Assembly (NCBI GenBank): GCA_001244265.2
Contig: CDLV01000015.1
Coordinates: 930,001 to 994,000 of the forward strand
Reading direction: 5' to 3'
DNA length: 64,000 nt
Source: Microbotryum violaceum
Taxonomy: Eukaryota
Positions 6,799 through 63,433 of this stretch are shown here, in pieces. The notes beneath the pieces are model-generated. The model searched no databases, had not been told where the DNA came from, and worked only from the letters and a program-made list of their open reading frames with translations. A program made the translations under genes and the position numbers. Each line of letters opens with the position of its first letter. Within the stretch, counting starts at the first letter, position 1.

Positions 6799-7014
6799 TG
6801 CATTGCGATGTATGATGCGGTACTTATGAGTATGCCGATCGCATATTCTTCGAGCTGAAGCACCACACGCACAGAACGTGGATGATCCTCAGCTCCTAGA
6901 GACGTCACTGGAAGCCAATACCTCGGCGGCGCCGGCTCGTCACGTACTACAGGTCTGTATTCTTTCTCACTATCGATCAACGAGACACTGGCTGATTTAC
7001 AGGGTGCGACTACT

Positions 7015-9042: not shown

Positions 9043-9218
9043 TTTCATTTAGACCCACAATCACACGCTCATCGCTATACTGAACCTTGTAAGAAAGCAC
9101 AAAGTAAACCTGAGTTGCAGAGACAAACGAGAAGTCATACAACAACCACTGTAGTAAACAACAATAATCTGATCGGAGCCCGTGATGTGCGTGACACCGC
9201 AACGGGTAGCTTATGTAG

Positions 9219-13336: not shown

Positions 13337-13413
13337 GGCCGGATACTAGCTTAGTAGGTCAAAGGCTTTTCCAATGAAAGGAAGCGACCCAGGTTCGACA
13401 CCTGGTCCAGCCG
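13337..13413 (+). ncRNA. tRNA-like element within LTR-like repeat 13294-13459
   Basis: Duplicate of 1782-1858 with one substitution. Confidence 0.65.
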
Positions 13414-14565
13414 TTCTCTTCTTTTGTCGATCTTTACGGAATCATTGTTGATTCCAGCAGCATTGTCCTTCCAGATCATTGGTCCTGATCACAAAGAGGG
13501 GCTTGAAGCCGGCCGCCCAAATAACCTCTCTACATGACGGGATCGCAGGGCGGATAGAAAGTGATATTACACAGTCTTCATCTTTAATTTGATCAAACAC
13601 ACGAGTCACAAATCAACCACTTCCTCCTTCGCCTTGCTTCTGCTGTTTTGCCCATCCGCCGAAGCATCATCGTTTCTCCCTCGTTTCCCACCGAGCGCGC
13701 CGACTAGAGGGTGACTCATGACAATTGAGGTCGCTGGCCTCGATAAGGGACGATTGGCCCGATTGCGCGCACTTCAGTGCACAATGTCATATTTTGAAGA
13801 CTTTACGCGGTGCATCTGGCACAGGGCACTGATAATTGAGCTGGGGCCTACTAGTCGCCGATCGGCGACTCGGATACCGTGCCCTCATCGCGCATTTAAA
13901 CCCGAGCTGGACGCGCCTTGACGAGTGAACAAACAATACGAGTGAATTCGAGTGGTGTTGTCCCTTTTCAAGCGCCGTTCCGCTTCCGCAAATATGCATT
14001 TATTTCTTCGGTCACGCAGTCTTGTATGCCGCGGCCCAGCAAGACAAATTGAAAGGCACGAGATCGCTGTCGAGCCTCACTGGTTCCGATTCCAAACTGA
14101 AAGGATTAAATGGTGTGATTCGCAGGCGAAGAAAGTGGACCAAAAGGACTAACTTGGTCAAGAGGCGCTGCGGCGCCGCGCGCGAGGTCAAGCTTGAGGC
14201 CGCTGAGGTTGGTTCAGAGGCGTAAGCGAAGTGCAGTGGCGCCTTACAGATTCCTGTCTCCACACTGGCAGCAGGGCCAGGGGTATCGCATCTTATCAAC
14301 ATCAGCAGCGAACGGGAGAGAGGGTCTACAAAAGATTGGTGAATCGCGCGAAGGTGGGAAGGTGGCTGTTGAGTTTTGCAGGGCTGACCCCCCGGGCGCG
14401 ATAGCGGACGGTTACAGCGAAACAGAGCGAGGTAGTACGCCTTACTTTGGTCATCACTTCTCATCCACTTCCATACCATCTGACTTGCTTTGGTCGTTTT
14501 GGCGGTCGGAACGAGATGCAACAGTTGGAAAATGATCAAATGAATGGCACACGTGGCTAAAGCAG

Positions 14566-17037
14566 CTACAAAATGATAGGCGAAACCGACGCCCTTTCCC
14601 GTCTCGTCTGCACAATCTCCTCAAGCAATTTCTCCAAATCCGCAACAAGCTGATCATACGAGAGCTCCCCTGAACCCCATTCACTCTTGAGGTATTCTTC
14701 TACTTCGACCCCGTTGTACATATAAGTTGACAAGTTGAGTCCGCAGTACTTCGCCACAATATCGATAAGGTCGGGAAGGCCATCCCAGAAACCCAAATAT
14801 GGCTTCAGCAGCTCCCTCCGGTTTGACTTATGTTGGACATATCCCACTTTGATATCGTAGGCACATTCTTCCCAATTCCAATCTTTCCACACCGCCGCGG
14901 CTTCTTCCGACAGCCTGCCCCAGCTTTCTGGTCCCGTGGGTTGCATGAAAACGACGAAAAGGATGACGTAAACGAGCGACTCGATGTCGTGCCACGGCTG
15001 ATGCAGAATCGTGCCGACATTGTCAATGAGTTGCCTTGCTCGGAATGCGAAGGTGCCCTGTGCGCGGTGATTGAACGAGGCTCTGATCAGCGGTGTAGCA
15101 CTGACACGCTACAGGACGAGAACGTAACCTCACAACTCGTTCCAGACGTGCTGCGTCGCCAAAGGGCCCGTCCATGAGCACGGCGAGATCATAATCGATT
15201 AGTACACCCTCTCCATCCGGTCCAACCATGATGTTTCCGGAAGAGACATCGCGATGCAGGATGCGCATGCGGTGCAGACTGCGCAGACCTGGGAAGAGAA
15301 GATCAATTCGGCATCAGATATCAAACATCCACTGCAACCCCAACTGATCCGAGCGAGATCAGAAACATACCTTTCACCACTCCAAGCGCGACTCGAATGA
15401 GCGCCTCGGTCGAGTCCACGGTCCAGATTGTCTCGAAGCAGCGCTCCTGAAAGGCCACCTCCATCGCCCTCGGCTTGAGCGCGGCGCTGTCGGCGTCGGA
15501 CTGGCCCTTGAGGAAGTGAGGTACAAGGCCGAAATTGACCTCTCGATGCACGTCCACAAAGTTCGTGAGACCTTCGCGCTCCTGAGGCGATGCCGAAGCA
15601 ATCAGCAGCCGGATCCGATCGTGTTCGTCGCAACGAGCCTCTTCCACAAACGAGACGGTCATCGCGTACTCCTGTTCGCCGTTGACACCCATCCGTGTCG
15701 CACGAACTCGCGACGCCGACGTCTGCAACCCGAGGACTGCGCCGCTACAAAACACCGTTTGCGCAATCTCGACCGAGTCGATCGTCGACCCGTCCCCGAG
15801 GTGATGAGCGAAAACTGGCACTCGCGGCGGCAGCGTGGCGACCGGGAACGGCAGAGGTGGGCCGTCGGGCTCCCCAGGCGAGGCGATCTTCCCAAGGTCA
15901 AGATCATTCAGGCTGAGCAGACGCGTGATAAACATCGAGAGGTGTCCATTCGATTCGGTGCATTCGATGTCGGACGAATAGAAGAGACCAGAGGGGGTGT
16001 GAAGATAGAGGGTCAAGATCGAACCGTCGAGCGTGAAGCCGAACGTGTGAGAGCGGATCGGTGACTCGGCAGCGAGCTTGCGCAGGTGATGCTTCACTCG
16101 CGTGGCCGGGTAGACCCACGCCGAATCCAAGGTGGGGTCTTGGCATATCTTCTTGCCACCCAGTACACCAATCGCGGCCACTTGTTCCCAGTTGCGGAAA
16201 TCGTCTTTTTCAGCGTCGACGTGATCTTGGGCCCAAGCCGACGCGAGCTCGGAATTGCCGTCGAAGGCCTGTCGCGACAGCACGACGAAATCGGGGAACT
16301 CGTTGGGGTCGTAGGCTTCGCGATCTTGGCGAAGAGGGGTTTTCACAAGTCTTCCTTGTGGTTCCTGTCCGATCCAGAGCGCGGGTAGATGAGGGACATC
16401 GAAACAACAGTAGGAGCAACATTGCGTTGGAAGAGATGCTCACCAAGTTCGGATCACCTAACTGCCACGTGATTCTCGGCGCCAGGCTCTGATTCATCGT
16501 TGACTCAGTCTGGCCGAGATCCGCCGCGGTACCGTCGCGACTGGGGCTGGGGCTCAGGAAAAAGTCCCTCAACGAGGACCACTCGATTTCATGGCCCTGA
16601 AATCCGGTTCTGTCTTCCGAGCTGGAAGGGAACATCCATGTGCGCAGGACCCATGGCAGTTGAGCGGTGAACGAGCGAGCGAGAGGCGGCGAGGGCACGC
16701 GTGGCGGGACCTTCGGCGATGTGATCGGCGATCCCGTGGGCGACGTGATTGCTGATCCTGCAGGGGAAGTGATCGCTGATCCTGCTGGCGAACTGATCGC
16801 TGATCCTGCTGGCGAAGTGGTTGGTGATTCTGTGAAGGACCCCTTCGGCGAGCCCGTCGATGGAGCGGTAGTTGCTTTCGTAGAGCCACGCGATCGGCGA
16901 GATGCCGGCGAGGACGTGGTCGACGGGGGTGAGCCGGAATGCTGCTGTGCGACATCTCGGGCGGGGTGGGCAGGCGGTGACGCCGGCTCTGGACCGCCAA
17001 CGTCCACGCATTTGTCGCCAGACTGCGCGCCAGCCAT
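14566..17037 (-). CDS. FunK1-type kinase K1, second copy of allele A
   Basis: ORF translations identical to 3009-5480. Confidence 0.88.
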
Positions 17038-18571
17038 CGACAGAACACAAAGAGAAGAGGCTAAGGAAAGAGGGAGGAGTAGGTCTAGACCAGCTGCAAA
17101 ACACTGGCACGGCGATGTAGTTGTCAGTTTGTTCAGTTGCTTTCGCGTGCCTCAGCCTGTATCCGCGTAACCGACACCGAGATGGTGTCTTCTCAACATG
17201 AGCAGCAACAGGAGAGGTATCTACAAAGGCGAGTGGGGCCACGTGACAGAAGGAAGATTGCTTGTGATGGTATGGTGAGATATGCAGGGTGGACTCGGGA
17301 GGGCTCCCCGCGCGGACCGCAGCGACATGCCGCAAACGCGCTGACGCTGCCAGACGCTGCCAGACGCTGCCAGACGCTGCCAGACGCTGCCGGAAAGCTC
17401 AGCCGAAGATGCGTCTCGAAAACCCCGGTTTTTGGCCGATTTGTACACCGAAAATCCCTTTCCAAGGGGTGTATGTATTCCGGTGTAAGGCAAATTTATC
17501 GGGTTGTGTTGAAAAAGTTAATCTACCATGAAAAATTATAAATGGGCTCGAAATGTACAAATCGTGCACATACATCATGATCGGGCTGAGCTTTTGCGGG
17601 CCCTACGCTGGCTGACGCTGGCTGCCTCGGGCCGAAACTGGCTGCAGCTGGCTGGCCGAATCGGCGCGTCTATACGGTGGCCGGGGCCATATCCGATCTG
17701 CGCCGAATGGACGTTGGTCGCAGCTCATCCTGTAGGAGATGCAAACACTTTGATCTCCTGATCTTTGACCCCAGGTGTTACTTCATATAAAGCGACACTG
17801 TACAGCATCATATGGCTTAAGGCGATGTCTGAAATCCAAACCGTTCTCTCTTGAACCTTGAAGGAAAATCGCCAATGTTTTGAGCCCACCACAGCGTCAA
17901 GCTTACCTGCCTTCAAGCTGATGGCACTCTTCAGCGATCACCGTCGGGCCCCGTACAGCACACCCACGCCATCAACACCGGCCTACACGAGGGTCACTTC
18001 ATATTAGACTAGTGCACTCTTTGACCATGCTAAGGACGCCGTTACGCCGTTAGGAATTCGGAAGAGGGCGCCGGCCCCAAGCTCAAGCGTCCAGTCGCTC
18101 GTGCTCGGAAACAGAAGGGAACACCGCGATCCCGATCGCTCTGATCTGCCGGTAAGCGTTCTCTCCGGTCCTATGTACATAGTACTTCCGGTACAGATGG
18201 ATGAGACTCGATGAATCCGCAGTTGCTGCAGCTGCGTCGGTTGCTAAGACGACGTTGAGGCTGCGGGAAGGCCGCACAGATCCTAGTAGTACCGATCAAA
18301 AGTACCCAATTTCGGGGCGTCAAGGTAATTATCTTGGCTCTTTTTTTTCTTCTCGTGCATTGCGATGTATGATGCGGTACTTATGAGTATGCCGATCGCA
18401 TATTCTTCGAGCTGAAGCACCACACGCACAGAACGTGGATGATCCTCAGCTCCTAGAGACGTCACTGGAAGCCAATACCTCGGCGGCGCCGGCTCGTCAC
18501 GTACTACAGGTCTGTATTCTTTCTCACTATCGATCAACGAGACACTGGCTGATTTACAGGGTGCGACTACT

Positions 18572-19060
18572 TTGATAGCGAAGCTGGCGCGTTTGAAGCC
18601 AACAGCGACGAACCTTCTAGCGGGAGTACAAACGGGCTCCGGTGTCATTGTCCGGCCCGGAGTGGCGGTGTTGCTTCTCAACGGGGGACACACGGCGCAT
18701 TCGACTTTTCGAATCTCATTCGACACCTTGCCGACCTCGATGTGTCCAGTCGACAGGGAGAGTGATCTCCCGCTGATGCTGCGTACCACCAAGCTCATCA
18801 TTTGGGATGAAGCACCAATGGCGCATCGATTCGCCGTGGAAGCGGTCGACCGTGCACTGCGTGATCTCCGAGAGACCGAGGAGCTCTTCGGCGGGGTGAC
18901 CACGATCTTTGCGGGTCAGTTGGGCTCTTCCGCCTCCGCTTTGAACGACGGCAAGCTAACAAGGTTTCCGATCTGCAGGGAACTTTCGCCAATATCTTCC
19001 TGTCTGCCAAAGGAACCCTCGGTCAAATCGTCGATGCCTCCTCTCTCTCTCTCTCTCTGA
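18572..19060 (+). pseudogene. Helitron PIF1-like helicase fragment (duplicate)
   Basis: Identical translation to 7015-7503. Confidence 0.9.
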
Positions 19061-19513
19061 GTGAATTTCACCTTCTTCTCCAGCCCGAGCCTCGCTCTCG
19101 ATTCTCGACTCTTACCACATCCGTCCCAAATTTCGAGCCTCCTCGAGCTCGGTCCCAGACTTACCCACCTCGTCTGATTCAGCTTGCCCAACTACCAGTA
19201 GTTGGTCTTTCTCTTTCCCTTCTGCAGCTCGGATCTCAAAGGTCGCACACTTGCTCTCTTCCTTCGTCCTCGTCTCTTTGTGAGAAGTCCCTAGAAAATT
19301 TCTCGCCTCATCCCTCGTCCCTCGCCCTTTCAGCACCTTTGTCTTTCTCGCTTTCCTCATACGTAGGTGCCAATGTGCGATCTAGTCACTTCCACGCACT
19401 TCGTGAATAAGTTCGTTCTCTTCATTCAGATCGACAATCACACCCTCATCGCTACTGAGCCTTGTAAGAAAGCACATTAAAAATAGATCTGAGATGCAGA
19501 GACGAACGAGAAG

Positions 19514-20450: not shown

Positions 20451-28359
<7,909 letters not shown>

Positions 28360-29176: not shown

Positions 29177-30275
29177 GCCTTGATTGAATAGACTAGCCAT
29201 CCAAGAAAACAAGTAAACACGGTCTGCATTGGAGTGTTGCACTGGTCTGCTCAGTTCCAACCAGACTCTCATTGTAATACTCTGTAGTTACTCAAAGGCC
29301 CGATGCGCGTCTGGCCTTAGGCATTGCCGGAAAGTAGGGCCTCTCTTCCTTTCCGACCAGTTTATTCTTTGGAATACATACTCGTATCCTGTCACCTGCA
29401 AGGCCCGACGCTGGGGCCTTACACTCATCCCGCCGGCGCGCGCACAATTGTCCAACCAGTGCAGGGTCAAGGAGGAAGTGGGTGGCATATGACCCATGTA
29501 TTCCACCTGAATGCCCCACAAATATGTGATATTGCCGTCTTTCCGCCCTGCCAGCTCATCACGTAGAGAAGTCTCAGCTCTTTAGGCCGGGATCTCACTG
29601 CCAGCCGGGCCCCTCTTTCAAGTGATCTGGACCGATGGTCTAAGAGGACACCCCCCAAATAATATGCTAGATCAATCATATGAATCGGATGGCGAAAGAA
29701 AGCTGATGGCATCTGAAAGTCGATCAAGTGGTCACCCGCCCCACTGCACCATTGATACAGTGCATGGGGCACCACCCACCGATCGCGAGGGAGGTTTGCA
29801 GGTCGTCGCAATAGTCGCCTGTGGCTCATGTGTATGCCGTAGCCATAGAAATTGGTGCGGCAGCATAGTATTGATTTGGGCTTTACTTGCGCAGTGTTGA
29901 TTTGGATGTTCTGGGAGAGACAACATGAGCCTCTTGTTCAGTGAGGCCATAGGCTTGCTTCTCCGAGTCTGCTCGGCAAAAACCTCGCCGCAAATGGGGC
30001 ATGTGTCAGTGTGCAAACCTGCACGGACGTTCCGGGACTCCAACGAGCAGCGACCACTGATGGTTGTCGCTTACAACACGCAAGGAAATGAAAGGTCGAA
30101 AGCTTAAGCTGGAGCTGATATAGCTGCTGGAAGGGTCATCTAATGATGTGGATGTCAAAGTACACCGGGCCACCGGCGGTCCAATGTGTTGAGCTTCCAG
30201 TGAAGCGGGGGTTTAACCGTAGCATCATGATAGCCAAAACTGTGGCACATTCTGACTAAAGTACGAGTACGACAA
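29177..30275. repeat. Unclassified dispersed repeat, homolog of 1-935
   Basis: Collinear similarity with the window start; interrupted by a 151-bp solo LTR. Confidence 0.7.
29273..29423 (+). mobile_element. 151-bp solo LTR of the TRIM family
   Basis: TGTAA...TTACA; 5-bp TSD CTCAT. Confidence 0.95.
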
Positions 30276-30771: not shown

Positions 30772-30922
30772 TGTAATACTCTGTAGTTACTCAAAGGCCC
30801 GATGCGCGTCTGGCCTTAGGCATTGCCGGAAAGTAGGGCCTCTCTTCCTTTCCGACCAGTTTATTCTTTGGAATACATACTCGTATCCTGTCACCTGCAA
30901 GGCCCGACGCTGGGGCCTTACA
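30772..30922 (+). mobile_element. 151-bp solo LTR of the TRIM family
   Basis: TGTAA...TTACA; TSD GGAGG. Confidence 0.95.
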
Positions 30923-38161: not shown

Positions 38162-39393
38162 GTAGGTTGATGAGCATTGGCATACAGCCCAACTCCGTGT
38201 CTTCGTCGACGTAAAGTGTAAAGTGTGCTAGTTCAGTGTCTCGCCCAGGCGTGCTGTTCACGCCAAATCGTTTCGATCGGCTTTGCTGAACGGCATCGGA
38301 TGGGATCAACAATTGATGGCGAGTCTTGCGGTGACGTGGCAGATTACGTTGTGTTGGCTCGAAGGCCGAAGAAGTGCGGACGTTGGGCATAGATCAGGAC
38401 AGGTAGGGGGCTGAGAAAGAGCTCGATGCGATTGTCGCGCCGCGGGCGACACGTCACTTCTACTAACTTCCCGTGGGCCAATGACAACTTCCCCACCTTT
38501 CTGCCAACTTCCCCCACGCCTCTGCCAAGTTCGCAAACTTCATTGCCTAAGCGGGCCGCAATCGGGCCTCAAGGCCTCAAGCGCGCGCGCGCGCCTGAAG
38601 TTGGCGAAGTTGGCACTCCCTGAACACCGCCAGCGCCCCGGTAAGTGGACCTGAATGTAAATGTAAATGTGATCAGGTGCTTCGATATAGACCCCGCCGG
38701 TGGTTCCACAACTCGTATTACTGTACAACACGATTCGAAAGTTGGGCTGATACCAAACTTGCCAGCTGGTGCGACAAGCCCTTGCCACAATGCACGCTGA
38801 CAGATATCAAATTCGTCCAAGTCATAGTCGCGTAAATCGTAAATCGCACGCGTGCGGAGTCCGCGCGTTGCAGCGCGTTGCGCGTGAGTGCGCGTGTCTC
38901 GGGCGAAGTGCTGCGAAGTGTGGATTGAACGTTGAACGAACGTCGATGGAAAGCCCGCCTCTTTCTCTTTTCCTCTTTTCCTCTCTTCCTCTCTTCCCGC
39001 CGACCACACACCTGCCTGCACCATGCACCGCCTCACAGTCGAGCACAAGCATCTGATAAATCTCTGATCGCATCTGGTTAGACGTTCGTCAGCGCTCCGC
39101 CTGTCTGTCTCGCGGGTCCTCATCACTCTCGTTCGTCTTCGCATCGTCGTCGCCACGACCACTGCTCGCAGAGCCCAGGCCTACTCCGACCTCGTTTTCG
39201 TTTATCTTTGCAATCCTCGACCCGGTGCCAGTCTTCGCGGTCTGCCACTCACCACAGCCTATTGTACGCTCAGCTCGTCGGCAGTAAGTCAAGTTGTACT
39301 CAAGACTGGTTGGGTCAGTGAGCTTGTTATCAAACTGACAGAGCGTTTGGAAGCAGTGCCGCGCAACTTTGATCCAATAACATACTACTACAG

Positions 39394-41490
39394 CTCTCCC
39401 CGGGCTGCACTCGAATCGTAAAACACCTATCGATGAGCGCCTGAAAGAGGAGCTTGGCAGCAGAATCCCTTACTCGCCCAATCTCCACACCTTCATAGCG
39501 TCGCCCGACCCCGAACTCGACGCTTTGGTCGAAGATGTTACGTTTGCTGGTACCTGGGGGCAGGAGGAGCCGATGCAAGCTCTCTTTGACCAAATTAATG
39601 CTGTTGTAAGTTCGAAAGCACTCCATACAGAGGGAAGTGGTGTGATGCATTTGACTGAGCATGGCCGATTCGTGCTTCAGGGTCCAGCGGTTCGACGTAT
39701 CGTCGCTAGTGGGGGTTTGAGCGTGCCCGTTCCGACGTCGGAAGAGCAGCAACATCATTCCGATCAAGCACCCGACGCAGTGACGCTGTTCACTTTTGCT
39801 TCGAACGAAGCTATCGAGGCGGCATGGAAGATGTCGAATGAAGACTGGCGCCGCGAAGAAGCACGATTGGGTCGACATCCGACCGATCGTCGCCAGGTGA
39901 ACCAGGTCCTCTTTCCGGGAGAGATCAAAGGCGGTCCCAAGGCAGGCGCCGCCGCTCGGCAGATACTTCGGCGATTCTATCGCTTGAAGTCGACAGTTGC
40001 TCTTCGTGAATTCGTCTACGGCTTCACCCTAGCCGTGGATCGTTTCCGAGTGCTTTGTCATATGCCGGGCGGGATCGTCCAGACGAACGAGTTCAACTGT
40101 TCGCGGCCCGAAGGCTTCAAGGTCCTCCTTCGGTTCCTTGTCCGACTTGTGGTCGACACCGAACTCAACCTCGGCGCAATTGTCTCGGGCGCCGCCTATC
40201 CGCTGACGGTCAACACTCTGCCGCCGTTCGTATATCAGCGTCCTACCTCGGCGGGATCGGCCGCGAACGTTCACCATCGAGCTCGTCTGTGGGCACCGAC
40301 CAACCGCAAGGACGCGATGACTGGAAACCGAACGGCTTACTATCCTGCTGCTGTCGAAAAGGATGGCGCCACCGCTTCGTATCGACGCTCACCCGAGCAG
40401 ACCGTCGCCTTCTCGTTTCCCACAAGTGAACAATCCAAGCGCACCATTCGCCTTTTGGAACGATTGGACACGTTCCACTCCACTACAATCGAAGGGCTTG
40501 CCACGGTGGAGACGATCTACCAGGATCCTCAAGCTTTTCGTACTGCTCCGCCCGACGTCTGCGGTGGGGATGCGGGTTGTCTGTCAGGTGGTGTGACTTC
40601 AAGGACGACACAGTTCATCGAGTATCGAGAATTGTATCAATCAATACTACAAGCCCAATCCACGCACCATCTGACGCAACTAATACTTGACGCGGTCAAA
40701 GGTCGGTCTTCACATCGGAATAAAAGGGGGGAGCGTAGGGACTGATACAATCGATCGTTCGGCGCATGGTCCGCAGGGGTACGGAGTCTTTACCAAATCG
40801 ACGTACTACATCGCGACCTTTCGATCGAAAACTTGGTGATCAAGCCTGACGGCACCGGAGCTCTGATGCTTTCGGATTGTTTTTGCTTCTTGGATGATGC
40901 CCTGTCCGAACAAGAGCGTTTGGAAGCGGTTGTGAGTAAAAACCCTGTCACGACTCTCTAAGCTAAGTCCACGGCCGCCAACTTGGAGCGGTTTGGCTAC
41001 GCAGGGCACTCTAGCAACTATGGCCCGCGCAATGCTCCCGACCAACAAGTCTCGGATTAAACATGAAATTTGGCATGAGATCGAGCAACTTGTCTTTGAC
41101 GTTCTGTATGTCATTTCAAGCCGCCCGTTGGGACCCAACAACCCTACAAGGATGTCGAGGGAGGATGAGAAGACATGGCGCAACTGGGACCGCATCGCTA
41201 CGGCATTGGCCATCTTGAAGTCGATCCAATTTCAGATCCCAATCGAATGGCGATCTCAGCTTGAACGGTATAAGCATTTTTGGACCGACATTGACCAATT
41301 GTTCCAAGTACTGTTCAAGTACTGCGGGCTGGGCTTGGTGAGCGAAAAGACCACAATCGCGGAAGAAGAAGTTGCTTTGTTTGCAGAGTGGGGTGGGCGC
41401 GATGGAGCTACTCGTTTGCTCGACCAACTGGTCCACGATTTGGAAATGTTGGCGTCCACGCTTGCGCTGCAAAATATGCAACTAAAGTAG
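39394..41490 (+). CDS. FunK1-type nuclease-like + pseudokinase protein K2, allele C (5' end uncertain)
   Basis: Exons ..40701, 40777-40931, 41005-41490 with GT-AG introns, open through to the TAG; PD...EIK; HRDLSIEN; LMLSD in place of LIDYD. Confidence 0.82.
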
Positions 41491-41666
41491 CTACATAAGC
41501 TACCCGTTGCGGTGTCACGCACATCACGGGCTCCGATCAGATTATTGTTGTTTACTACAGTGGTTGTTGTATGACTTCTCGTTTGTCTCTGCAACTCAGG
41601 TTTACTTTGTGCTTTCTTACAAGGTTCAGTATAGCGATGAGCGTGTGATTGTGGGTCTAAATGAAA

Positions 41667-42830
41667 TAACGGGAGGATCAAATTCAAAAAATAGCAGGAT
41701 AATCGAACAGTCTACATGATCTCAGCGCAGAGGTTAAGAAAACACCTTACGAAGTACAGCAAAGAAACAAGTCCATTCATCCTACATTCATCGCCGAAAC
41801 AGCCTGCATGTCGCTTGTTGCCGGACTTGGCTTCAAGCACTTGTGCAATGAGATCCGGACGGTTGCATGCTTTGTCATTCGGCCCCAGTGCAGCCTAAGT
41901 GTCCGGTTCGTCCTTTGCACTCTCAGTGTCGAGCCTTGCAGTGGGCACACACAGCCATCTGGGGCCAAGTACTCGCGGATGAGAACGTGGGGCTTGAGTG
42001 CTTTGAGCTCGATTCGAGGCCTGCGCACTTGCCTCTGCGCAGGAAGAGGTGGTGGTGGGGCGAGCTCAGCGTCGGATCGGCCATCGGGCCCTCGCGCTGA
42101 CCACACTGTCCGTTCTACAAAGCTGTACGGCGGGCGCTTATGCGGGTCGTAATACCAAGATCGGTCAAGTGGTTGCCATCACGCGCGGGGAGCTGATTCA
42201 GTCGATCGGAACGGGACGAAGAGGAGAGGAGAGCAGCCGGCTCAGCAGCAGGCGCTTGAGCAAGCTCGAGCAGGCCCATGGTCTCTCATGGTACGGCGGT
42301 ACGCTATCCTCGCGCCAGAGACTCGGCGCGGTTGTCACGAAAATTCGATGAGTGGGAGGGAAAGGAAAGAATTAGAGAGAGTATCGCGGGACTATCTACA
42401 GCCCCTGGAAGATCATGTTGTTGTTCGGCCCCTAAAACCGGTGTCGCGTTGTAAACAGTACGTCACGTGATCGACGGCGCATCGGGCAACGTAAGCCGCG
42501 CCCGCACGGACAGCGGGACCACGCCCGAGCTCTGTAGGAGAAGTGTCATGCAAACCCACGCGCTTGCTATACATACAAACTGCTCAATAGTTGGGCACCC
42601 CGCCAAAAATCAACAAAACTTGTCCTCGGGCTGTAGCTCGACTTTTATGGCGCAGAAAATGTGGAAAGGGTTGTACATGACTTCTGGTCGTGACGCCAAT
42701 ATCACAGGTAGGTGCGGCAGACGCAATACTGTACTGGTACATTCACGATAGGCGGTCCAGAGGGCCGCAACACAGTCAAAAACAGCGATTTTAGGTACAT
42801 GGGTCGCGGATCGACCTTTTTATATATAGA
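41667..42830 (-). mobile_element. Internally deleted Helitron derivative (inverted copy of 7879-9042)
   Basis: Reverse-complement identity with 7879-9042. Confidence 0.75.
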
Positions 42831-43205
42831 TAGAGAGGTAGTAAAGCGAACGAACTTATTCACGAAGTGCGTGGAAGTGACTAGATCGCACATTGGCACC
42901 TACGTATGAGGAAAGCGAGAAAGACAAAGGTGCTGAAAGGGCGAGGGACGAGGGATGAGGCGAGAAATTTTCTAGGGACTTCTCACAAAGAGACGAGGAC
43001 GAAGGAAGAGAGCAAGTGTGCGACCTTTGAGATCCGAGCTGCAGAAGGGAAAGAGAAAGACCAACTACTGGTAGTTGGGCAAGCTGAATCAGACGAGGTG
43101 GGTAAGTCTGGGACCGAGCTCGAGGAGGCTCGAAATTTGGGACGGATGTGGTAAGAGTCGAGAATCGAGAGCGAGGCTCGGGCTGGAGAAGAAGGTGAAA
43201 TTCAC

Positions 43206-43694
43206 TCAGAGAGAGAGAGAGAGAGGAGGCATCGACGATTTGACCGAGGGTTCCTTTGGCAGACAGGAAGATATTGGCGAAAGTTCCCTGCAGATCGGAA
43301 ACCTTGTTAGCTTGCCGTCGTTCAAAGCGGAGGCGGAAGAGCCCAACTGACCCGCAAAGATCGTGGTCACCCCGCCGAAGAGCTCCTCGGTCTCTCGGAG
43401 ATCACGCAGTGCACGGTCGACCGCTTCCACGGCGAATCGATGCGCCATTGGTGCTTCATCCCAAATGATGAGCTTGGTGGTACGCAGCATCAGCGGGAGA
43501 TCACTCTCCCTGTCGACTGGACACATAGAGGTCGGCAAGGTGTCGAGTGAGATTCGAAAAGTCGAATGCGCCGTGTGTCCCCCGTTGAGAAGCAACACCG
43601 CCACTCCGGGCCGGACAATGACACCGGAGCCCGTTTGTACTCCCGCTAGAAGGTTCGTCGCTGTTGGCTTCAAACGCGCCAGCTTCGCTATCAA
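43206..43694 (-). pseudogene. Helitron PIF1-like helicase fragment (inverted copy)
   Basis: Same LIIWDEAPM fragment with one amino-acid difference. Confidence 0.9.
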
Positions 43695-45240
43695 AGTAGT
43701 CGCACCCTAATCAGCCAGTGTCTTGCTAATCGATATTGAGAAAGATTACAGACCTGTAGTACGTGACGAGCCGGCGCCGCCGGCGTATTGGCTTCCAGTG
43801 ACGTCTCTAGGAGCTGAGGATCATCCACGTTCTGTGCGTGTGGTGCTTCAGCTCGAAGAATATGCGATCGGCATACTCATAAGTACCGCATCATACATCG
43901 CAATGCACGAGAAGAAAAAAAAGAGCCAAGATAATTACCTTGACGCCCCGAAATTGGGTACTTTTGATCGATACTACTAGGATCTGTGCGGCCTTCCCGC
44001 AGCCTCAACGTCGTCTTAGCAACGTCGTCTTAGCAACCGACGCAGCTGCAGCAACTGCGGATTCATCGAGTCTCATCCATCTGTACCGGAAGGACTATGT
44101 ACATAGGACCGAAGAGAACGCTTACCGGCAGATCAGAGCGATCGGGATCGCGGTGTTCCCTTCTGTTTCCGAGCACGAGCGACTGGACGCTTGAGCTTGG
44201 GGCCGGCGCCCTCTTCCGAATTCCTAACGGCGTAACGGCGTCCTTAGCATGGTCAAAGAGTGCACTAGTCTAATATGAAGTGACCCTCGTGTAGGCCGGT
44301 GTTGATGGCGTGGGTGTGCTGTACGGGGGCCCGACGGTGATCGCTGAAGAGTGCCATCAGCTTGAAGGCAGGTAAGCTTGACGCTGTGGTGGGCTCAAAA
44401 CATTGGCGATTTTCCTTCAAGGTTCAAGAGAGAACGGTTTGGATTTCAGACATTGCCTTAAGCCATATGATGCTGTACAGTGTCGCTTTATATGAAGTAA
44501 CACCTGGGGTCAAAGATCAGGAGATCAAAGTGTTTGCATCTCCTACAGGACGAGCTGCGACCAACGTCCATTCGGCGCAGATCGGATATGGCCCCGGCCA
44601 CCGTATAGACGCGCCGATTCGGCCAGCCAGCTGCAGCCAGTTTCGGCCCGAGGCAGCCAGCGTCAGCCAGCGTAGGGCCCGCAAAAGCTCAGCCCGATCA
44701 TGATGTATGTGCACGATTTGTACATTTCGAGCCCATTTATAATTTTTCATGGTAGATTAACTTTTTCAACACAACCCGATAAATTTGCCTTACACCGGAA
44801 TACATACACCCCTTGGAAAGGGATTTTCGGTGTACAAATCGGCCAAAAACCGGGGTTTTCGAGACGCATCTTCGGCTGAGCTTTCCGGCAGCGTCTGGCA
44901 GCGTCTGGCAGCGTCTGGCAGCGTCTGGCAGCGTCAGCGCGTTTGCGGCATGTCGCTGCGGTCCGCGCGGGGAGCCCTCCCGAGTCCACCCTGCATATCT
45001 CACCATACCATCACAAGCAATCTTCCTTCTGTCACGTGGCCCCACTCGCCTTTGTAGATACCTCTCCTGTTGCTGCTCATGTTGAGAAGACACCATCTCG
45101 GTGTCGGTTACGCGGATACAGGCTGAGGCACGCGAAAGCAACTGAACAAACTGACAACTACATCGCCGTGCCAGTGTTTTGCAGCTGGTCTAGACCTACT
45201 CCTCCCTCTTTCCTTAGCCTCTTCTCTTTGTGTTCTGTCG

Positions 45241-47712
45241 ATGGCTGGCGCGCAGTCTGGCGACAAATGCGTGGACGTTGGCGGTCCAGAGCCGGCGTCA
45301 CCGCCTGCCCACCCCGCCCGAGATGTCGCACAGCAGCATTCCGGCTCACCCCCGTCGACCACGTCCTCGCCGGCATCTCGCCGATCGCGTGGCTCTACGA
45401 AAGCAACTACCGCTCCATCGACGGGCTCGCCGAAGGGGTCCTTCACAGAATCACCAACCACTTCGCCAGCAGGATCAGCGATCAGTTCGCCAGCAGGATC
45501 AGCGATCACTTCCCCTGCAGGATCAGCAATCACGTCGCCCACGGGATCGCCGATCACATCGCCGAAGGTCCCGCCACGCGTGCCCTCGCCGCCTCTCGCT
45601 CGCTCGTTCACCGCTCAACTGCCATGGGTCCTGCGCACATGGATGTTCCCTTCCAGCTCGGAAGACAGAACCGGATTTCAGGGCCATGAAATCGAGTGGT
45701 CCTCGTTGAGGGACTTTTTCCTGAGCCCCAGCCCCAGTCGCGACGGTACCGCGGCGGATCTCGGCCAGACTGAGTCAACGATGAATCAGAGCCTGGCGCC
45801 GAGAATCACGTGGCAGTTAGGTGATCCGAACTTGGTGAGCATCTCTTCCAACGCAATGTTGCTCCTACTGTTGTTTCGATGTCCCTCATCTACCCGCGCT
45901 CTGGATCGGACAGGAACCACAAGGAAGACTTGTGAAAACCCCTCTTCGCCAAGATCGCGAAGCCTACGACCCCAACGAGTTCCCCGATTTCGTCGTGCTG
46001 TCGCGACAGGCCTTCGACGGCAATTCCGAGCTCGCGTCGGCTTGGGCCCAAGATCACGTCGACGCTGAAAAAGACGATTTCCGCAACTGGGAACAAGTGG
46101 CCGCGATTGGTGTACTGGGTGGCAAGAAGATATGCCAAGACCCCACCTTGGATTCGGCGTGGGTCTACCCGGCCACGCGAGTGAAGCATCACCTGCGCAA
46201 GCTCGCTGCCGAGTCACCGATCCGCTCTCACACGTTCGGCTTCACGCTCGACGGTTCGATCTTGACCCTCTATCTTCACACCCCCTCTGGTCTCTTCTAT
46301 TCGTCCGACATCGAATGCACCGAATCGAATGGACACCTCTCGATGTTTATCACGCGTCTGCTCAGCCTGAATGATCTTGACCTTGGGAAGATCGCCTCGC
46401 CTGGGGAGCCCGACGGCCCACCTCTGCCGTTCCCGGTCGCCACGCTGCCGCCGCGAGTGCCAGTTTTCGCTCATCACCTCGGGGACGGGTCGACGATCGA
46501 CTCGGTCGAGATTGCGCAAACGGTGTTTTGTAGCGGCGCAGTCCTCGGGTTGCAGACGTCGGCGTCGCGAGTTCGTGCGACACGGATGGGTGTCAACGGC
46601 GAACAGGAGTACGCGATGACCGTCTCGTTTGTGGAAGAGGCTCGTTGCGACGAACACGATCGGATCCGGCTGCTGATTGCTTCGGCATCGCCTCAGGAGC
46701 GCGAAGGTCTCACGAACTTTGTGGACGTGCATCGAGAGGTCAATTTCGGCCTTGTACCTCACTTCCTCAAGGGCCAGTCCGACGCCGACAGCGCCGCGCT
46801 CAAGCCGAGGGCGATGGAGGTGGCCTTTCAGGAGCGCTGCTTCGAGACAATCTGGACCGTGGACTCGACCGAGGCGCTCATTCGAGTCGCGCTTGGAGTG
46901 GTGAAAGGTATGTTTCTGATCTCGCTCGGATCAGTTGGGGTTGCAGTGGATGTTTGATATCTGATGCCGAATTGATCTTCTCTTCCCAGGTCTGCGCAGT
47001 CTGCACCGCATGCGCATCCTGCATCGCGATGTCTCTTCCGGAAACATCATGGTTGGACCGGATGGAGAGGGTGTACTAATCGATTATGATCTCGCCGTGC
47101 TCATGGACGGGCCCTTTGGCGACGCAGCACGTCTGGAACGAGTTGTGAGGTTACGTTCTCGTCCTGTAGCGTGTCAGTGCTATACCGCTGACCGGAGCCT
47201 CGTTCAATCACCGCGCACAGGGCACCTTCGCATTCCGGGCAAAGAATCTCATCGAATATTTCGGCAAGCTTTTGCATCAGCCGTGGCACGACATCGAGTC
47301 GCTCGTTTACGTCATCCTTTTCGTCGTTTTCATGCAACCCACGGGACCAGAAAGCCGGGGCAGGATGTCGGAAGAAGCCGCGACGGTGTGGAAGAATTGG
47401 AACTGGGACGAATGTGCCTACATTACCAAAGTGGCGTTTGTCCAACGGCAGTCAAACCGGAGGGAGCTGCTGAAGCCATATTTGTGTTTCTGGGAAGGCC
47501 TTCCCGACCTCGTTGCTATTGTGGCGAAGTACTGCGGACTCAACTTGTCAACTTACATGTACGGCAGGGTCGAAGCAGAAGAATACCTCAAGAGCGAATG
47601 GGGTTCAGGTGAGCTCTCGCATGATCAACTTGTTGCGGATTTGGAGATATTGCTCGAGGAGATTGTGCAGACGAGACGGGAAAGGGCGTCGGTTTCGCCT
47701 ATCATTGTGTAG
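45241..47712 (+). CDS. FunK1-type kinase K1, allele C; 4 exons, 744 aa
   Basis: Exons 45241-45834, 45914-46907, 46990-47144, 47221-47712 (2235 nt, in frame, GT-AG introns); HRDVSSGN, LIDYDLA, WHDIES. Confidence 0.9.
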
Positions 47713-48625
47713 CTGCTTTAGCCACGTGTGCCATTCATTTGATCATTTTCCAACTGTTGCATCTCGTTCCGACCGCCAAAACGACCAAAGCAAAGGCAGA
47801 TGGCACGGAAGTGGATGAGAAATGACGACCAAAGTAAGGCAGAGATTACTACCTTGCTCTGTCTCGCTCCGCCACCGACCCCCTACCGACCGTAGTCACG
47901 CCCGGCAGTCACTCCTGTATAACTCTTTAGCCACCTTCTTCCCTTCGCACGTTCACCGGTTTCTTTCAGGTCCTCTCTCCCGTTTGCTGCTGATATGATG
48001 CGAGACCGCTGGCTCTGCTGTGGAGACAGTCCTGAACCTTCCTCTTCCCACCGCTCATTTTTACACTTCTGAAACCGCAGTTGAAAAAGTCGGGGAAGCT
48101 ACCCGAACTTGTCGCGCTAGTGGCCAACTGCTGCTGCCAAGGTTCGTCTCCTATCATACACGGCGACTGGGAAGCGGTCGAGAAGTGACACCTTGCGGTC
48201 CACCGTCCGCCGGGGGGGTGAGGTCCCTTGTGACCAGATTGTTAGGATACAGAAGAAACAAGAGAAGTCTATGGATCCGTTTGCCAGTGTGTCGACTTCG
48301 AGTGAAACGCAAGGCAAAGCTACAAATGTACAGTTTGCGACAGTATGTGTACTCCGAGCATGGATAAAGGGACTGGTGTGAGACCATCATCCCACGGCTC
48401 GGTGTGAACCATTCATACATGAGAGCAGATATCGGTCTCGATTTCTCGGCTAGCAAGCCTCGGTCAGATCAGTTGAAGCGGCCATGTGATTGGGTCAACA
48501 AAGGCTGCGGGCCGAGTCCGACGTCAAGTCTATCAATAGGGACTGGAACAAGCAAACGCTGGAGACGCGCGATGAAACCAATGACATACAAAGATAAAAG
48601 ACCTATTCATATGATACTGGTGTTG

Positions 48626-49131
48626 TCATCGCTTCTGTTTCCTCTGAACAGTCTCGAGAAGCAAATGGTCCAAATCCGCAAAGAGATGGTCGTGAGAGAG
48701 CTCACCCGAGGTCCCATCCTTTCTCTAGCCATTCACCTTCTGCGACCTTGCTGCAAGTAAAAACCGACGGGCCGAGTCCGCAGTACTTCGCATCAATAGC
48801 AATGCGATCAGGAAGGCTTTTCCAGAAATCCAGATATGGCTCCGGCGACTCCCTCTGGCCCGACCCGGCGCAATTGAACAAACCCCTCTTTGAAATCGTA
48901 GCGCCAGAGTTCAGAGTTCCAATCATTCCACCGCGCAGTGGCCACTTCTGACATGCGGCTGCCTAGCCCCGTGGGTTACGTGAAAACGACGAAACGGATG
49001 ACGTAAACGAGCGACTCGATGTCGTGCCACGGCTGATGCAGAATCGTGCCGACATTGTCGATGAGTTGCCTTGCTCGGAATGCGAAGGTGCCCTGTGCGC
49101 GATGGTTGAAAGAGGCTCCGATCAGCGGTGT
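48626..49131 (-). pseudogene. Orphan last exon of a K1-type kinase
   Basis: Intron tail plus GTFAFRARQLIDNVGTILHQPWHDIESLVYV, in-frame stop, frameshift, then PYLDFWKSLPD..AKYCGL..GELSHD; no upstream exons. Confidence 0.88.
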
Positions 49132-49804
49132 TCTCCCGGGAAGGGTTTGGTCGATGTGGTCGCGGATACTTGTGGCGAAGCAGCTCTTTGGGACGGAGCG
49201 AGAAGGAAAAGCCCGGCGCGACGAGACGGTGTCGAACGTTTTCAGATCGTCCTCAAGGATGCGCAGCAAAAATCAAGCGGCTTGAACGACCGAAATCCTG
49301 CTCCTGTCGAACAGTCAATCGATTCGGTCCTGATGATTCCGCTCGGTGTGTAAACTTGAACACGGAACATCGAGCCGCAAAGCGTCAAGCCATAGACCCA
49401 TTCCTGAATCCCGTTAGTTTGTAGTCATCCGATAATATCGCCGATAGGGCTGTGCGTCGGCTAGGGCTTGGTCCAACTCATTCGCCTTGAGCTCCATGAC
49501 GATGTAAATGTCCTCCATAAGTCGATCGTCGTGGATCCGGCGTTTGTGCTGTGCTTCCCACGATTTTCTCGTCGCATTGTCCATCTTCCACGCCTCGACC
49601 TTCTTCGGCGTGTTCACGTGTGGGAAGAGGGGGACCACATCGGCGCAGTGGTCGTTGGAGCCCACCTGACCAGACGAGGTCGGAACTATCGCATTTGACC
49701 CCCCGCGCGCGACGAGATCTCGGTCCGAAGCTGAAGCCTGCAGTGCAGAACGGCGAGATCAGCCGCCTGCTCATGACAGGGATTAGAAGATGAGCTGAAA
49801 GGCC

Positions 49805-52378: not shown

Positions 52379-54049
52379 TATTAGAACTGAGGCCCTGGCA
52401 CGAGATACGTAAGTATGAGAGCCGAAGATGATAGATATAATAGTTGGAGAGAAAGAAGGAAGGTTATGGAAGCGCGCACGAGCTAGGCTCGAGACGCACG
52501 AGACCGCAGATATCTACAACTGGTAACTAATCATAATCGGGACTCTAAGTGGGATGAAGCAGCATTATACTCTCTGATACCCCCCGTGCTGTCATACCAC
52601 TGCACCTCGTAGACCGAGGTTTTCCCGGTGAAAGAAGAACGGCTTGGGACCCAAGGCTTTGGTGAAAATATTGGCGAACATGTCGCCGGTGGCGATGTAG
52701 CGGACTTCGATCTCCTTCTCAGCTACCCTCTCGCGGACGTAATGTTCCGAGATGCGAACGTGACGAGACCCCTGATGGTTGGTCGGGTGCTGCGCAAGAG
52801 CCAGCAAACCTTGGTTGTCCCCATAGAGTACGACTGGACCGGAGACCGGAGCGCCAAGTTCAGCCAGGAGTTCGCTCAGGTGGATGGCATCACCGCTTGT
52901 GTACGAAAGAGATAGGTACTCTGCGTCAGTAGTGGACTTGGCCACCCTGTGCTCGTGTTTGGAGCACCAAGCGATAGCGGCTCCGTACAAGATGAACGCG
53001 TAGCCCATGGTCGATCGCGAGGTCGTTAGACAGGCTCCCCAGTTCGCATCCGAGTAGCCATGGAGTGGTTGGTTGGTCTTGCGATAGGTGAGGCCCAAGT
53101 CCAGCGTGCCTTTGATGTAACGGAGGACCTGCTTGATGGCTGTCCAATGCTCCGGGGCGGGCTGCTGGGAGAACCGAGCGAGGTAGCTGACCACGAAAGC
53201 GAGGTCCGGACGAGTTCCGACTGCGGCGTACATCAACGAACCGATGGCCTGAAAGTAGCGCGTACGATCCTGAGGGGTGGCCGCCAAGTCCTCGCAGTCA
53301 AGGATGACACCTGGCTGTATGGGAATACTTGCCGGCTTGGCATCGGAAAACTGGAACTTTGCGAGGATGTCACGAAGATAGCGCTCTTGCGAAAGTGTGA
53401 TGGAACCATCTTGAGCATGCTTGACTTGGATACCGAGGATGTATTCAGCTTGTCCCAGGCGTTTGATGCTGTACGCCAGTTCCAACGCATCCAACACCCG
53501 GTCGAACTCGGTAAGAGTGGGCCCGACTAGAAGCAAGTTGTCTACGTACAGGGCGATGTAATGAGACTGTCCGTCGTGCTCCCGGCGATAAATGCAGATG
53601 TCCAACTTGGTGGGAATGTAGCCAAGATATCGCAGGGTCGAGTCAATCTCCGCATTCCAGATCGTCCCGGCTTGACGTAGGCCGTAGATGGACTTGGTGA
53701 GCCTGAGGATTTTATTGGCTAAGTTGATGCCTTGTGGGACGCGCATGTAGAGAGGTTTGTCCAGTTTGCCGTGCAAGCAAGCTTTGTTGACATCGGCCTG
53801 ATGAACGTGGTATCCGTTGGCAGTGGCGAGTGCGATGAGGGCACGAATGGACGTGAACTTGACGACAGGAGCGTAGGTGTTCTCGAAGTCAAGGCCGGGA
53901 CATTGTGCGCATCCATGCGCGACAAGCCGGGCCTTGCGATCGGTGATGTCGCCATGCTGATTGCGCTTGGTTCGAAAACCCAGCCCGACCGCAACAAAAT
54001 CTCCCCCGAAGGAAGGTCGCTCGATTCGATGAGATCGAAAACCTTGTAG

Positions 54050-55199: not shown

Positions 55200-55348
55200 T
55201 GTAATACTCCGTAGTTACTCAAAGCCTGACGTGCATCTGGCCTTAAGCCTTGTCGGGAAGTAGACCCTCTCTTCCCTTCTGACCAGTTTATTCTTTGGAA
55301 TACATACTCGTATCCCATTACCTGCAAGGCCCGACGCTGGGCCTTACA
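55200..55348 (+). mobile_element. Older solo LTR of the TRIM family, inside the copia integrase region
   Basis: TGTAA...TTACA; TSD GTGAG; removal restores [21 protein letters not shown]. Confidence 0.93.
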
Positions 55349-56573
55349 GTGAGCCAGGCCCGACACCCGAAGACTTTGAGAGGAGCCACGGTCGGGGTAC
55401 AGCCGTACCAGCGACGGTTCGGGATGTCACCGCGTAAAGCCGCGTGGGGCGATAGGTTCTTGGTGTGGACGTAGCACATGGGAGCCTCATCCCAGCAAGA
55501 GCGCGGAAGACCGGGATTGTGGAGGAGCGCCAAAGTGCCTTCCACAATCGACAGGTTAAGTCGCTCAGCCCGACCGTTCTGCTCGGGTGTATACGGGATA
55601 GTCAACTCGCGTTTGATGCCGCGCGCCACGCAAAAGCTGTTGAAGGACGAAGAGACGTATTCACCACCGTTGTCCGAGCGAAGAATTTTTACTCGTCGAC
55701 CCGTGGCGTTTTCCACCTCCAGAAGCCAGTCCTTGAATGCCGGGAAGACGTCGCTCTTGTGCCCAATGGGAAAAACCCACACTTTCCTCGAAAAGTCATT
55801 CATGAACGTGACCAGGTAACGCTTGTTTGAAAAGGACTCCTCAGGGAATGACAGGACATCCGAATGTACCAGTGCCAGCGGTTCAGCGGCATGCGACGAA
55901 GACGACAGGAACGGCGAGCGATGGGCTTTGGAAGCGAGGCAGGCATTGCAGGAGAAATCTCTACACTCGAGGTCACTATAAGGCCAGTCTAAACCCTTCA
56001 CTTGATCAGAGGCCGCCAGTTTTTCAAGTGTCTGGACAGAGGCGTGGCCATGATGGTGGTGAAGGGTAAGTGATGGTACCTTAGTGGGCGAGGCGCCGAC
56101 GAAAGCGGGGATCGCACCTTTGCTGCCAATTTTTTATTTTTTATTTGTTTGACTGGGCTCATAAATTACGATCCTTCGGGTTGGCTAGAATCGCTACAAA
56201 AAGAGCTAAAAGGGGTAATAAAGCAGCGACGACAAGCAGCTGGGTGAAAATCAAACCCCTGCGCGCAACGAGTGCTGCGCAACGAGTGCTGCGCAACGAG
56301 TGCTGCGCAGATCAAAACCCGCCGAGCACCTAACGCGGACTCCAACGAGCGGTGAGTACTGCTGCCGCTTCACAACCCAAGATTGGGAGCGAAGATACTC
56401 GAAAACCAGGCAAGAGCGCCTAGGAAAAAAAGTGACAATATACAAAAAGTCACAAACGGGAACACCGAGAAAGGAAAATACCAAAACAAGGGGAAAGGAG
56501 GGGGAGGAGGGGGACACAACCGAGGGACCAAGAAAGGGGGGTCGAAGCCAGGGATAGAGGTCCCCAAAGACTA

Positions 56574-57116
<543 letters not shown>

Positions 57117-57294
57117 TTAACTCGATCATCACACCTCCCAATCTCGAGCCCCAGGAACAAAGCCCGCCCGAGAGAGAAAATCTCGATTGAACGCTCTAAG
57201 TGCACTGGGGATCGAGGGAGGGGCCACGACGCGGTCCTTCTCGAACCGCTGGTGGACGTGCCAGCGCAGCAAGTGCAACCGCTGGAACCCAATC

Positions 57295-63149
<5,855 letters not shown>

Positions 63150-63433
63150 CAATCGCACAAGCCAACCAAACCCACATCCACTTCGAGGTCGTTTGCCCAC
63201 AACCCCACAAAAGGGGGAGCCCCATAGTCAGCTGCTGCTCCTGGGTGAACGTCGACGGATCGACATCGGTATCCTCGATGCCGAGCTTGTCGAACAGGAT
63301 GCGTAGCACCCCACTCCAGTAGCTGGCCGAGTACGCGCACCCAAAAAAGTAGTGCGACACCGTCTCAATGACCGCTGCATCGTTGCCACAGAACAGACAC
63401 GACGACGAAGAAGCATGGCCCTGAATAAGAGAC

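Follow-up and report, generated by a model that had tools for sequence, protein, structure and literature searches.

Two copies of a gene for a kinase-like protein, which along with their surroundings are otherwise nearly identical, differ densely at this locus over one short tract of the kinase C-lobe, raising the questions of where that tract came from and whether it specifies the pairing of the encoded protein with the product of a linked paralog. The window, i.e., the whole 64,000-nucleotide stretch analyzed (C13:930001-994000), comes from a 33-Mb assembly of 20 contigs, and its proteins show 94-100% identity to records of the anther-smut fungi Microbotryum lychnidis-dioicae and M. silenes-dioicae. 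The locus, which is listed as autosomal, contains three copies (A, B, and C) of a cassette, wherein a K1 gene lies ~3.7 kb downstream of a K2 gene on the same strand, separated from it by repeat DNA and a fragment of a PIF1-like helicase:

About 939-12034: cassette A, genes on the minus strand.
12496-19422: cassette B, 99.8% identical to A, with K1 only.
38674-48029: cassette C, inverted relative to A.
9219-11314, minus strand: K2-A coding region downstream of its N-terminal frame break.
39399-41490, plus strand: K2-C coding region downstream of its frame break, with an endonuclease-like domain and a predicted pseudokinase.
41490-45240: spacer between K2-C and K1-C, in which a high-copy repeat (about 41660-42850) is followed by a decayed PIF1-like helicase remnant (43206-43694, minus strand).
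3009-5480, minus strand: K1-A, at the partner position of K2-A, last exon of the 'alpha' type.
14566-17037, minus strand: K1-B, an orphan kinase-only copy in the K2-less cassette B, alpha type.
45241-47712, plus strand: K1-C, last exon (47221-47712) of the 'beta' type.
48629-49752, minus strand: decayed family remnants 3' of K1-C, of which 48629-49098 resembles the last exon of K1 and 49290-49752 is part of a K2-like N-domain.

The remainder of the window includes several repeats. The spacer between K2 and K1 has a relative in the repeat at 21.1-23.6 kb; a 151-bp repeat is present in five copies on both strands with 87-100% identity (29273-29423, 30772-30922, 55200-55348, 58313-58463, 59166-59316); and the nested remains of copia-type retrotransposons (minus strand; 52592-53776, 55318-56001, 59838-62786) are accompanied by a 342-bp direct repeat (57291-57632 and 62809-63150). 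GC-rich hairpins with a terminal CTAG, resembling Helitron 3' ends, occur at 26310-26352 (plus) and at 21168-21211, 2295-2338, and 13851-13894 (all minus). Carriage of the cassette by a Helitron was considered on account of these ends and rejected, as none of them is tied to a cassette boundary.

The variable tract was defined by a global alignment of cassette A (2698-12034, minus strand) with cassette C (38674-48029), which places it as follows:

41198-41349, plus strand: K2-C variable tract (C type).
9360-9510, minus strand: A-type variable tract of K2-A, in which a 1-nt gap near 9407 (41302 in C) breaks the frame in the assembly.

K2-C and K2-A differ here by 27 substitutions and the single gap within 152 bp (41198-41349 versus 9510-9360), which amounts to 27 of the 52 substitutions found across 8,507 bp (38674-47180) with a background of 0.3%, while in 20,000 uniform shuffles the densest 152-bp window never held more than nine. 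The dense tract reported by the first-pass annotation is thus real, with its length in this alignment being 152 bp rather than ~170 bp. Upon re-reading the sequence, we also recovered the peptide contrast which it had pointed out (LFKYCGLGL versus LIKYCELGM) along with the synonymous CTT/CTA, TAT/TAC, TTT/TTC, and GAC/GAT differences. The substitutions comprise 16 transitions and 11 transversions running in both directions, and because of this a RIP-like origin, which would appear as a one-way C-to-T sweep, is ruled out. All 10 changed codons among the first 17 (the 5' half; 41197-41247) alter the amino acid (pN 0.305, pS 0.113), whereas the 3' half (41248-41349) is mostly silent (pN 0.058, pS 0.452), a contrast with a Fisher p=0.006 at a split point chosen after seeing the data; the synonymous difference across the whole tract is 0.32. 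In the AlphaFold model of P0011, the sister-species ortholog (pLDDT 81), the tract corresponds approximately to residues 641-691, where the W..W helix (628-637) is followed by helices at 644-652, 655-665, and 672-680. Analogy with canonical kinases would make this the αG to αH region of the kinase-fold C-lobe, a common docking surface in kinases. Two further differences separate cassettes A and B from C in non-coding repeat DNA, viz., a third small diverged patch at 43708-43784 and a 14-bp indel at 44006-44019.

That the tract is genuinely diverged sequence rather than a consensus error, as had been claimed, is borne out by the recurrence of the A version in the sister-species ortholog and in an independent run, together with a clustering far above that of the shuffles. 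In a tree of 40 last exons, K2-A joins the M. silenes-dioicae ortholog P0011 (95/89) with K2-C falling outside, and among the 21 variable residues of this exon A agrees with the sister species in 10, C agrees with it in two, A and C agree with each other in six, and all three differ in the remaining three; the upstream exon of K2 differs from that of the sister species in 6 of 434 residues. Some residues of K2-C (e.g., the F of LFKYC and the L of GLGL) are held in common with more distant species. Because A groups with the sister-species ortholog rather than with C, the two versions, by this grouping, predate the species, i.e., they display the trans-species pattern of variants clustering by type and not by species. 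Their behavior is that of old haplotypes varying from sample to sample, which might be balanced alleles or the product of introgression, and either allelic or paralogous in origin. The first-pass annotation had envisaged a diverged donor paralog; however, BLASTN of both tracts (word-size 7) against 118 loci, along with genome searches that used the last and the big exon of K2 as protein and the K2 3' end and A tract as DNA, returned only the two K2 copies, although these genome searches score the best candidates only and a short donor could escape them. A database search for further K2 C-lobes yielded one more, from M. saponariae.

Four of the 24 listed runs (X1, X2, X12, and X20), all as assembled contigs, were compared with the window. 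The junction of cassette B at about 19421 is visible as a joint in X1, X2, and X12, and not in X20. X1, which is flagged as a possible source of the assembly and hence is not independent, has one unbranched K2 contig (39564-41696) with 0 differences at single-copy depth, i.e., the C type only. A single contig of X20 (40686-41495) carries 27 other letters without a gap, i.e., an A-like tract, and spans both K2 introns, marking it as DNA. The 1-nt deletion noted near 9406 in the first pass, which is present in the assembly, is therefore either an error or private to the strain. In X2 the K2 contig breaks off at 41197, immediately before the first difference in the tract, with a depth about double that of a single-copy contig, from which we infer that this sample holds both versions together. 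X12 has the C-type K1 3' flank and probably lacks the exact C tract. Separately, runs X21-X24 contain next to no K2 words (share 0.00), with one of them sharing its organism label with the best holders; this hints at a possible absence of K2 from some strains but does not count as evidence for it.

The two proteins of the cassette show complementary active-site motifs, with the principal features being:

39385-39400, plus strand: N-terminal frame break of K2-C, two bases short in comparison with P0011.
About 11302-11314, minus strand: K2-A N-terminal frame break, one base short relative to P0011.
39768-39965, plus strand: K2-C PD-(D/E)xK-type motif, with PD at about 39771 and GEIK at 39918-39929, then Gln.
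40702-40776 and 40932-41004, plus strand: predicted K2-C introns, from GT-AG and the database model P0011.
40809-40877, plus strand: K2-C catalytic loop, with HRDLSIEN intact and LMLSD replacing the Asp of DYD (DFG-equivalent).
47236-47451, plus strand: K1-C variable segments, one after GTFAFRA (47236-47274) and one around and after WKNWNW (47380-47451).

Structural comparisons with the model of the K2 N-domain (pLDDT 85.6) recovered restriction-endonuclease-fold proteins in 10 of the 12 top VIA rows, with the best match having Z 7.7 and an rmsd of 3.4 over 124 aligned residues (a Z under 8 being individually weak), whereas Foldseek with the same domain gave no match at E<=0.001. With this fold and both the PD and ExK residues, the domain is a predicted PD-(D/E)xK nuclease. 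The kinase fold of K2 spans residues 351-731 (Z 14.8) but lacks the DFG-equivalent Mg-binding Asp, which is missing too in K2 orthologs from three other database species and in P0011, P0012, P0008, and P0022; hence, K2 is predicted to be a pseudokinase. K1 presents the converse picture: K1-C retains both HRDVSSGN (at 47022) and IDYD (about 47079-47090) and is a predicted active kinase, while its N-domain has GVLG (46109-46120) in place of the nuclease GExK, as do the K1 orthologs, and thus lacks the ExK residues. Each of the two K2 copies in the window seems to be shifted out of frame close to its N-terminus, within a stretch that K2- and K4-class proteins conserve, and K2-A has its second frame break at 9407; consequently, K2 of the sequenced strain may be inactive or truncated. 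The first in-frame Met after the K2-C break (39573) could give a product that keeps the nuclease domain. The contig spans are consistent with this N-terminal break being shared by X1 and X2 and with the frame being intact in X12 and X20. The supplements of PMC4469406 list the K2 and K1 records without expression values, and the only one of them in its differential table is a delta-type K1 (MVLG_06715), which is higher in culture than in late infection. None of the runs listed as containing K2 is an RNA run.

Both proteins belong to the FunK1 type (PF17667, Pkinase_fungal): their full-length database versions carry PF17667, single K1 and K2 exons match it below the cut-off (E 5e-5 to 8e-3), and it is the first Atlas match (0.98). 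The motif split recurs across the family. All nine kinase-dead K2 and K4 rows shown keep D...ExK...Q, and all 10 K1-class genome loci shown lack the ExK Lys, with nine of them also having HRD..N and DYD (C13:1028k gave no loop match, and the count excludes the C8 Kx row and one unaligned third-class row). A second family of pairs, K4/Kx, shows the same split, as predicted beforehand from K1/K2: in K4, HRD is replaced by PRQ or PRH with GE[FV]K being kept, and Kx has live kinase motifs with AEIS at the nuclease site. These genes are arranged tail-to-tail in at least four copies (L063-L067; C4:2861k, C8:1481k, C5:29k, C20:22k and 42k), with N-halves differing at 0-6 positions per 100 bp, the kinase halves of both partners mostly at 5-20, and peaks of 35 and 28 over the αF to W..W region of K4, and there are two kinase-half types. 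Each of the seven nuclease-only genes found (K2-A, K2-C, four K4, and one on C17) has a kinase-only gene no more than ~4.5 kb away; at eight kinase-only loci, the ~10 kb covered contained no nuclease-only gene in intact form. These family counts, coming from genome searches, are lower bounds. M. saponariae, too, has members of the K2 and K1 classes under adjacent gene numbers (06593/06594 and 06595). It is because the losses of the catalytic motifs are reciprocal, a feature on which the first-pass annotation did not remark, that the K1/K2 pair becomes interpretable.

A third class combines ExK and kinase motifs in one gene (C3:27k, C12:85k, C18:414k, C8:8k, C13:1061k, and C17:695k of assembly G000; L101, L103, L106, L111, L081, and L078), and a relative from Phenoliferia likewise keeps both nuclease and kinase residues, which together suggest that the two-activity form is ancestral, with the order not being fixed by the long-branched tree. 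Several of the third-class genes are near contig ends, and their layout is the closest to that of the single-gene Spoks. Decayed K2-like pieces are common and scattered across the genome. Some K2-like fragments occur as adjacent plus and minus pieces in a fold-back arrangement (L071:7926-9415, L080:8255-9274, L113:5035-6332, L117:5056-5913), and are possibly either sources of silencing RNA or scars of rearrangement.

The C-lobe also varies in K1. The first-pass annotation had equated the K2 tract with the K1 region after WKxWNW, and the two segments indeed align; however, a matching discrete tract in K1 is not seen. Instead, near-identity among the K1 copies ends at about 47100, after which the divergence takes in the whole last exon and the flank as far as the duplication reaches (47183-48029); a second peak lies at 47236-47272, over a segment that does not vary in K2. 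The last exons fall into four types, viz., alpha (A and B), beta (C), and gamma and delta (C13:1020k and 1022k). Alpha and gamma are common to the sister species, and gamma also to M. saponariae, to which it is 96.9% identical, compared with an identity of 82.8% to the alpha type from that record set. The sister-species K1 P0019 combines a beta backbone with the alpha version of exactly the W..W segment, and lies near an A-like K2. Elsewhere, at L069 (C13:1018k-1024k), two K1 copies with cores 99% identical and gamma and delta last exons are found tail-to-tail, with no K2 nearby.

It is plausible, from these sequence types, that K1 and K2 co-vary as cognate pairs, a suggestion of the first pass that is upheld in part. 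Beyond the homologous position of the segments, an A-type K2 accompanies an alpha K1 in three settings: cassette A; the sister species, where an A-like K2 lies among K1 genes, two with the alpha segment, one of which is P0019; and X20, where an A-like K2 is found along with a K1 contig having 13 differences where alpha has 14 (in the first K1 segment only). X20 has almost no cover of the C 3' flank, which by itself does not prove its absence. The K4/Kx family adds a similar pattern, with homogenized nuclease halves and with the kinase halves of both partners switching type together. Against coupling, the K1-beta letters at 47238-47272 were found in none of the four runs, including X1 with its C-type K2, although contig assembly may have removed them; X12 has a C-type K1 flank although it probably lacks the exact C tract; the divergence of K1 covers its whole last exon; and the two window copies of K2 appear to be frameshifted. 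There is also one mismatch in an outgroup, viz., the K2-like P0022 and P0071 of M. saponariae are identical in the segment while the nearby K1-like P0016 and P0015 differ there, with P0071 and P0015 lying three gene numbers apart and being of unsure partnership. Further, only two K2 types are known, and several K1 types have no K2 beside them. The segment following W..W is variable in most paralogs, and hence the co-location of K1 and K2 variation may reflect low constraint only; similarly, the joint change in K4/Kx needs no selection because one conversion block spans both C-lobes of the convergent pair. A complex prediction of K1 (255-735) with K2 (240-735), made without alignments, scored 0.00 and is evidence neither way.

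The reading toward which we lean, tentatively and stopping short of calling it probable, is by analogy a Spok-like toxin-antidote system split over two genes, in which the C-lobe types would set who rescues whom. A role of K2 as toxin and K1 as antidote is favored because the two resemble the kinase-dead and nuclease-dead mutants of Spok placed side by side. We envisage that a single FunK1-type ancestor with restriction-endonuclease-like and kinase domains gave rise to both genes, with the jobs being split in Microbotryum such that K2 kept the nuclease motif with a dead kinase fold and K1 the live kinase with a dead nuclease motif. K2 would then damage DNA unless a compatible K1 docks on its pseudokinase domain, which K1 probably phosphorylates, and the C-lobe segments after the W..W helix would determine this compatibility. 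Under this proposal, the tract would be one of two ancient K2 C-lobe types persisting as haplotypes, gene conversion or recent duplication would keep the rest of the cassette near-identical, and the K1 copies without K2 would be orphan antidotes; meiotic drive might be an outcome. A more elaborate version is doubtful: it would have a selfish two-gene family in Microbotryum, in which the splitting of a nuclease-kinase protein gave both a toxin, the nuclease with its pseudokinase 'lock', and an antidote, the kinase acting as 'key', with the tract as the specificity surface of the lock in ancient forms, and with strains collecting orphan keys against the locks of other strains.

Of the alternatives, the one surviving best, which we consider unlikely, is a neutral or near-neutral mosaic, wherein an old allele or a piece introgressed from another Microbotryum lineage was converted into one K2 within an unstable region rich in repeats, with K2 itself being a decaying pseudogene, and the coincidence with K1 stemming from a loosely constrained surface and the duplication boundary. 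It would account for the frame breaks in both K2 copies, the third diverged patch in non-coding DNA, the K1 divergence reaching the duplication end, and the genome searches that found no donor; it is also in line with the available text of PMC5967549, where subtelomeric presence-absence variation is frequent in these species and judged mostly neutral. Yet, all 10 changed codons in the 5' half of the tract alter the amino acid, the K1 types persist over three species, the contig spans suggest an intact K2 N-terminus in X12 and X20, and the conserved reciprocal motif loss along with the 7/7 linkage would be left to explain.

Those last two features speak for a toxin-antidote or regulator-effector module in which any K1 neutralizes any K2, and the tract is diversified by a suppressor, a parasite, or a substrate, a scenario we regard as improbable. 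The K2/K1 mismatch in M. saponariae fits it, as does the placement of specificity in the N-terminal domain and not the kinase by the Spok authors, in the accessible parts of PMC6660238. However, the N-terminal and nuclease halves are homogenized among the copies here, so that specificity among them can hardly lie in those halves, and P0019 has swapped just the W..W segment.

More improbable still is allorecognition or fungal immunity, with cell death upon non-matching fusion or a guard against parasites, and balancing selection keeping the old types. The trans-species types would suit such a role, and the first mapped basidiomycete incompatibility locus, somA, has highly divergent kinase genes paired with NACHT genes, in the portion of the source at hand (10.64898/2026.06.24.733965). 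Against this, a scan of 24 proteins or pieces from the window detected no NACHT or LRR, a single haploid assembly contains several types side by side, and the dispersed, multi-copy, and orphan-rich layout would fit selfish elements better. Finally, an assembly artefact, with cassette A mis-assembled or a second haplotype and the tract an allelic difference placed on one contig, is very improbable, for despite the single unbranched, single-copy, C-type K2 contig of X1 and several 1-nt indels of A versus B/C that look like consensus errors, the X2 contig ends at 41197 at about double depth, as would be expected for both versions in one sample, and both would be real sequence even with A misplaced.

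If the lock-and-key version holds, it would represent a type-specific killer-rescue system in a basidiomycete, provide a function for the FunK1 expansions, and be a candidate explanation for the inviability of spores from crosses and hybrids. Many fungi have expanded sets of FunK1 kinases with no known role, and a natural nuclease-only/kinase-only split with a 50-codon swappable segment makes both their role and Spok neutralization directly testable in yeast. Specificity of the types, if it holds, would further be relevant to haplo-lethality and to the inviability of hybrids in a plant-parasite model; the haplo-lethal alleles of PMC7898863 are mating-type linked, whereas the K2/K1 locus is listed as autosomal.

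The nearest relatives by sequence are the FunK1/PF17667 proteins, described as fungal kinases of unassigned role, with which K1 and K2 share the family match, the HRDxSxxN loop, and the WHDxES helix. The literature searched, which took in few subscription papers, did not report for FunK1 either a systematic pairing of nuclease-only with kinase-only genes or C-lobe types of trans-species distribution; nor did it contain a description of the K1/K2 pair or of a split nuclease/kinase system. The wtf family offers a further parallel: it is a poison-antidote family with antidote-only suppressors, in which orphan antidote-like copies outnumber complete units and sequence types are diversified by conversion. 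The wtf products differ in being membrane proteins unrelated to K1/K2, with a single gene encoding two isoforms.

The CRN8-like CR/CRN proteins possess the same two-domain core as the K1/K2 family, and the available sections of PMC5289972 attribute the toxicity of REase+kinase CRNs to the REase domain, with the kinase having the regulatory role; they differ in being single secreted chains aimed at the host. The somA locus of Coprinopsis cinerea is, like the K2/K1 locus, from a basidiomycete, with paired genes including divergent kinases, variable copy number, and old alleles (10.64898/2026.06.24.733965, as far as available). There the kinase is tail-to-tail with a NACHT gene and flanked by an LRR gene, whereas the partner of K1 is a paralogous pseudokinase, and no NACHT or LRR genes were detected among the 24 window proteins or pieces, a scan confined to the window and to genes without introns.

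The closest parallel is presented by Spok of Podospora and the FuSpoks of Fusarium, which, in the accessible text of PMC6660238 and 10.1101/2025.02.05.636631, share the PD-(D/E)xK nuclease plus kinase architecture, the multi-copy and dispersed distribution, and gene-conversion tracts of 200-400 bp between homologs. In Spok, killing is due to the nuclease domain and protection to the kinase domain, with the kinase-dead mutant being toxic and the nuclease-dead one only resisting (PMC6660238, in part), such that the single-domain mutants mirror K2 and K1, respectively; how its kinase neutralizes its nuclease is given as an open question in the available part of 10.1101/2025.02.05.636631. Spok differs in that one protein holds both activities, along with a cysteine cluster (C-x3-C-x13-C-x5-H-x7-H) and a kinase that is ELK-like. 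The two active sites occur together in neither K1 nor K2, although other loci of this genome do combine them. In K2/K1, the activities are apparently split over two linked FunK1 paralogs of a basidiomycete, and it is the kinase C-lobe that varies. Thus, by architecture the pair would work like a Spok-type system, while being set apart from Spok by the published descriptions rather than by a SPOK sequence comparison.
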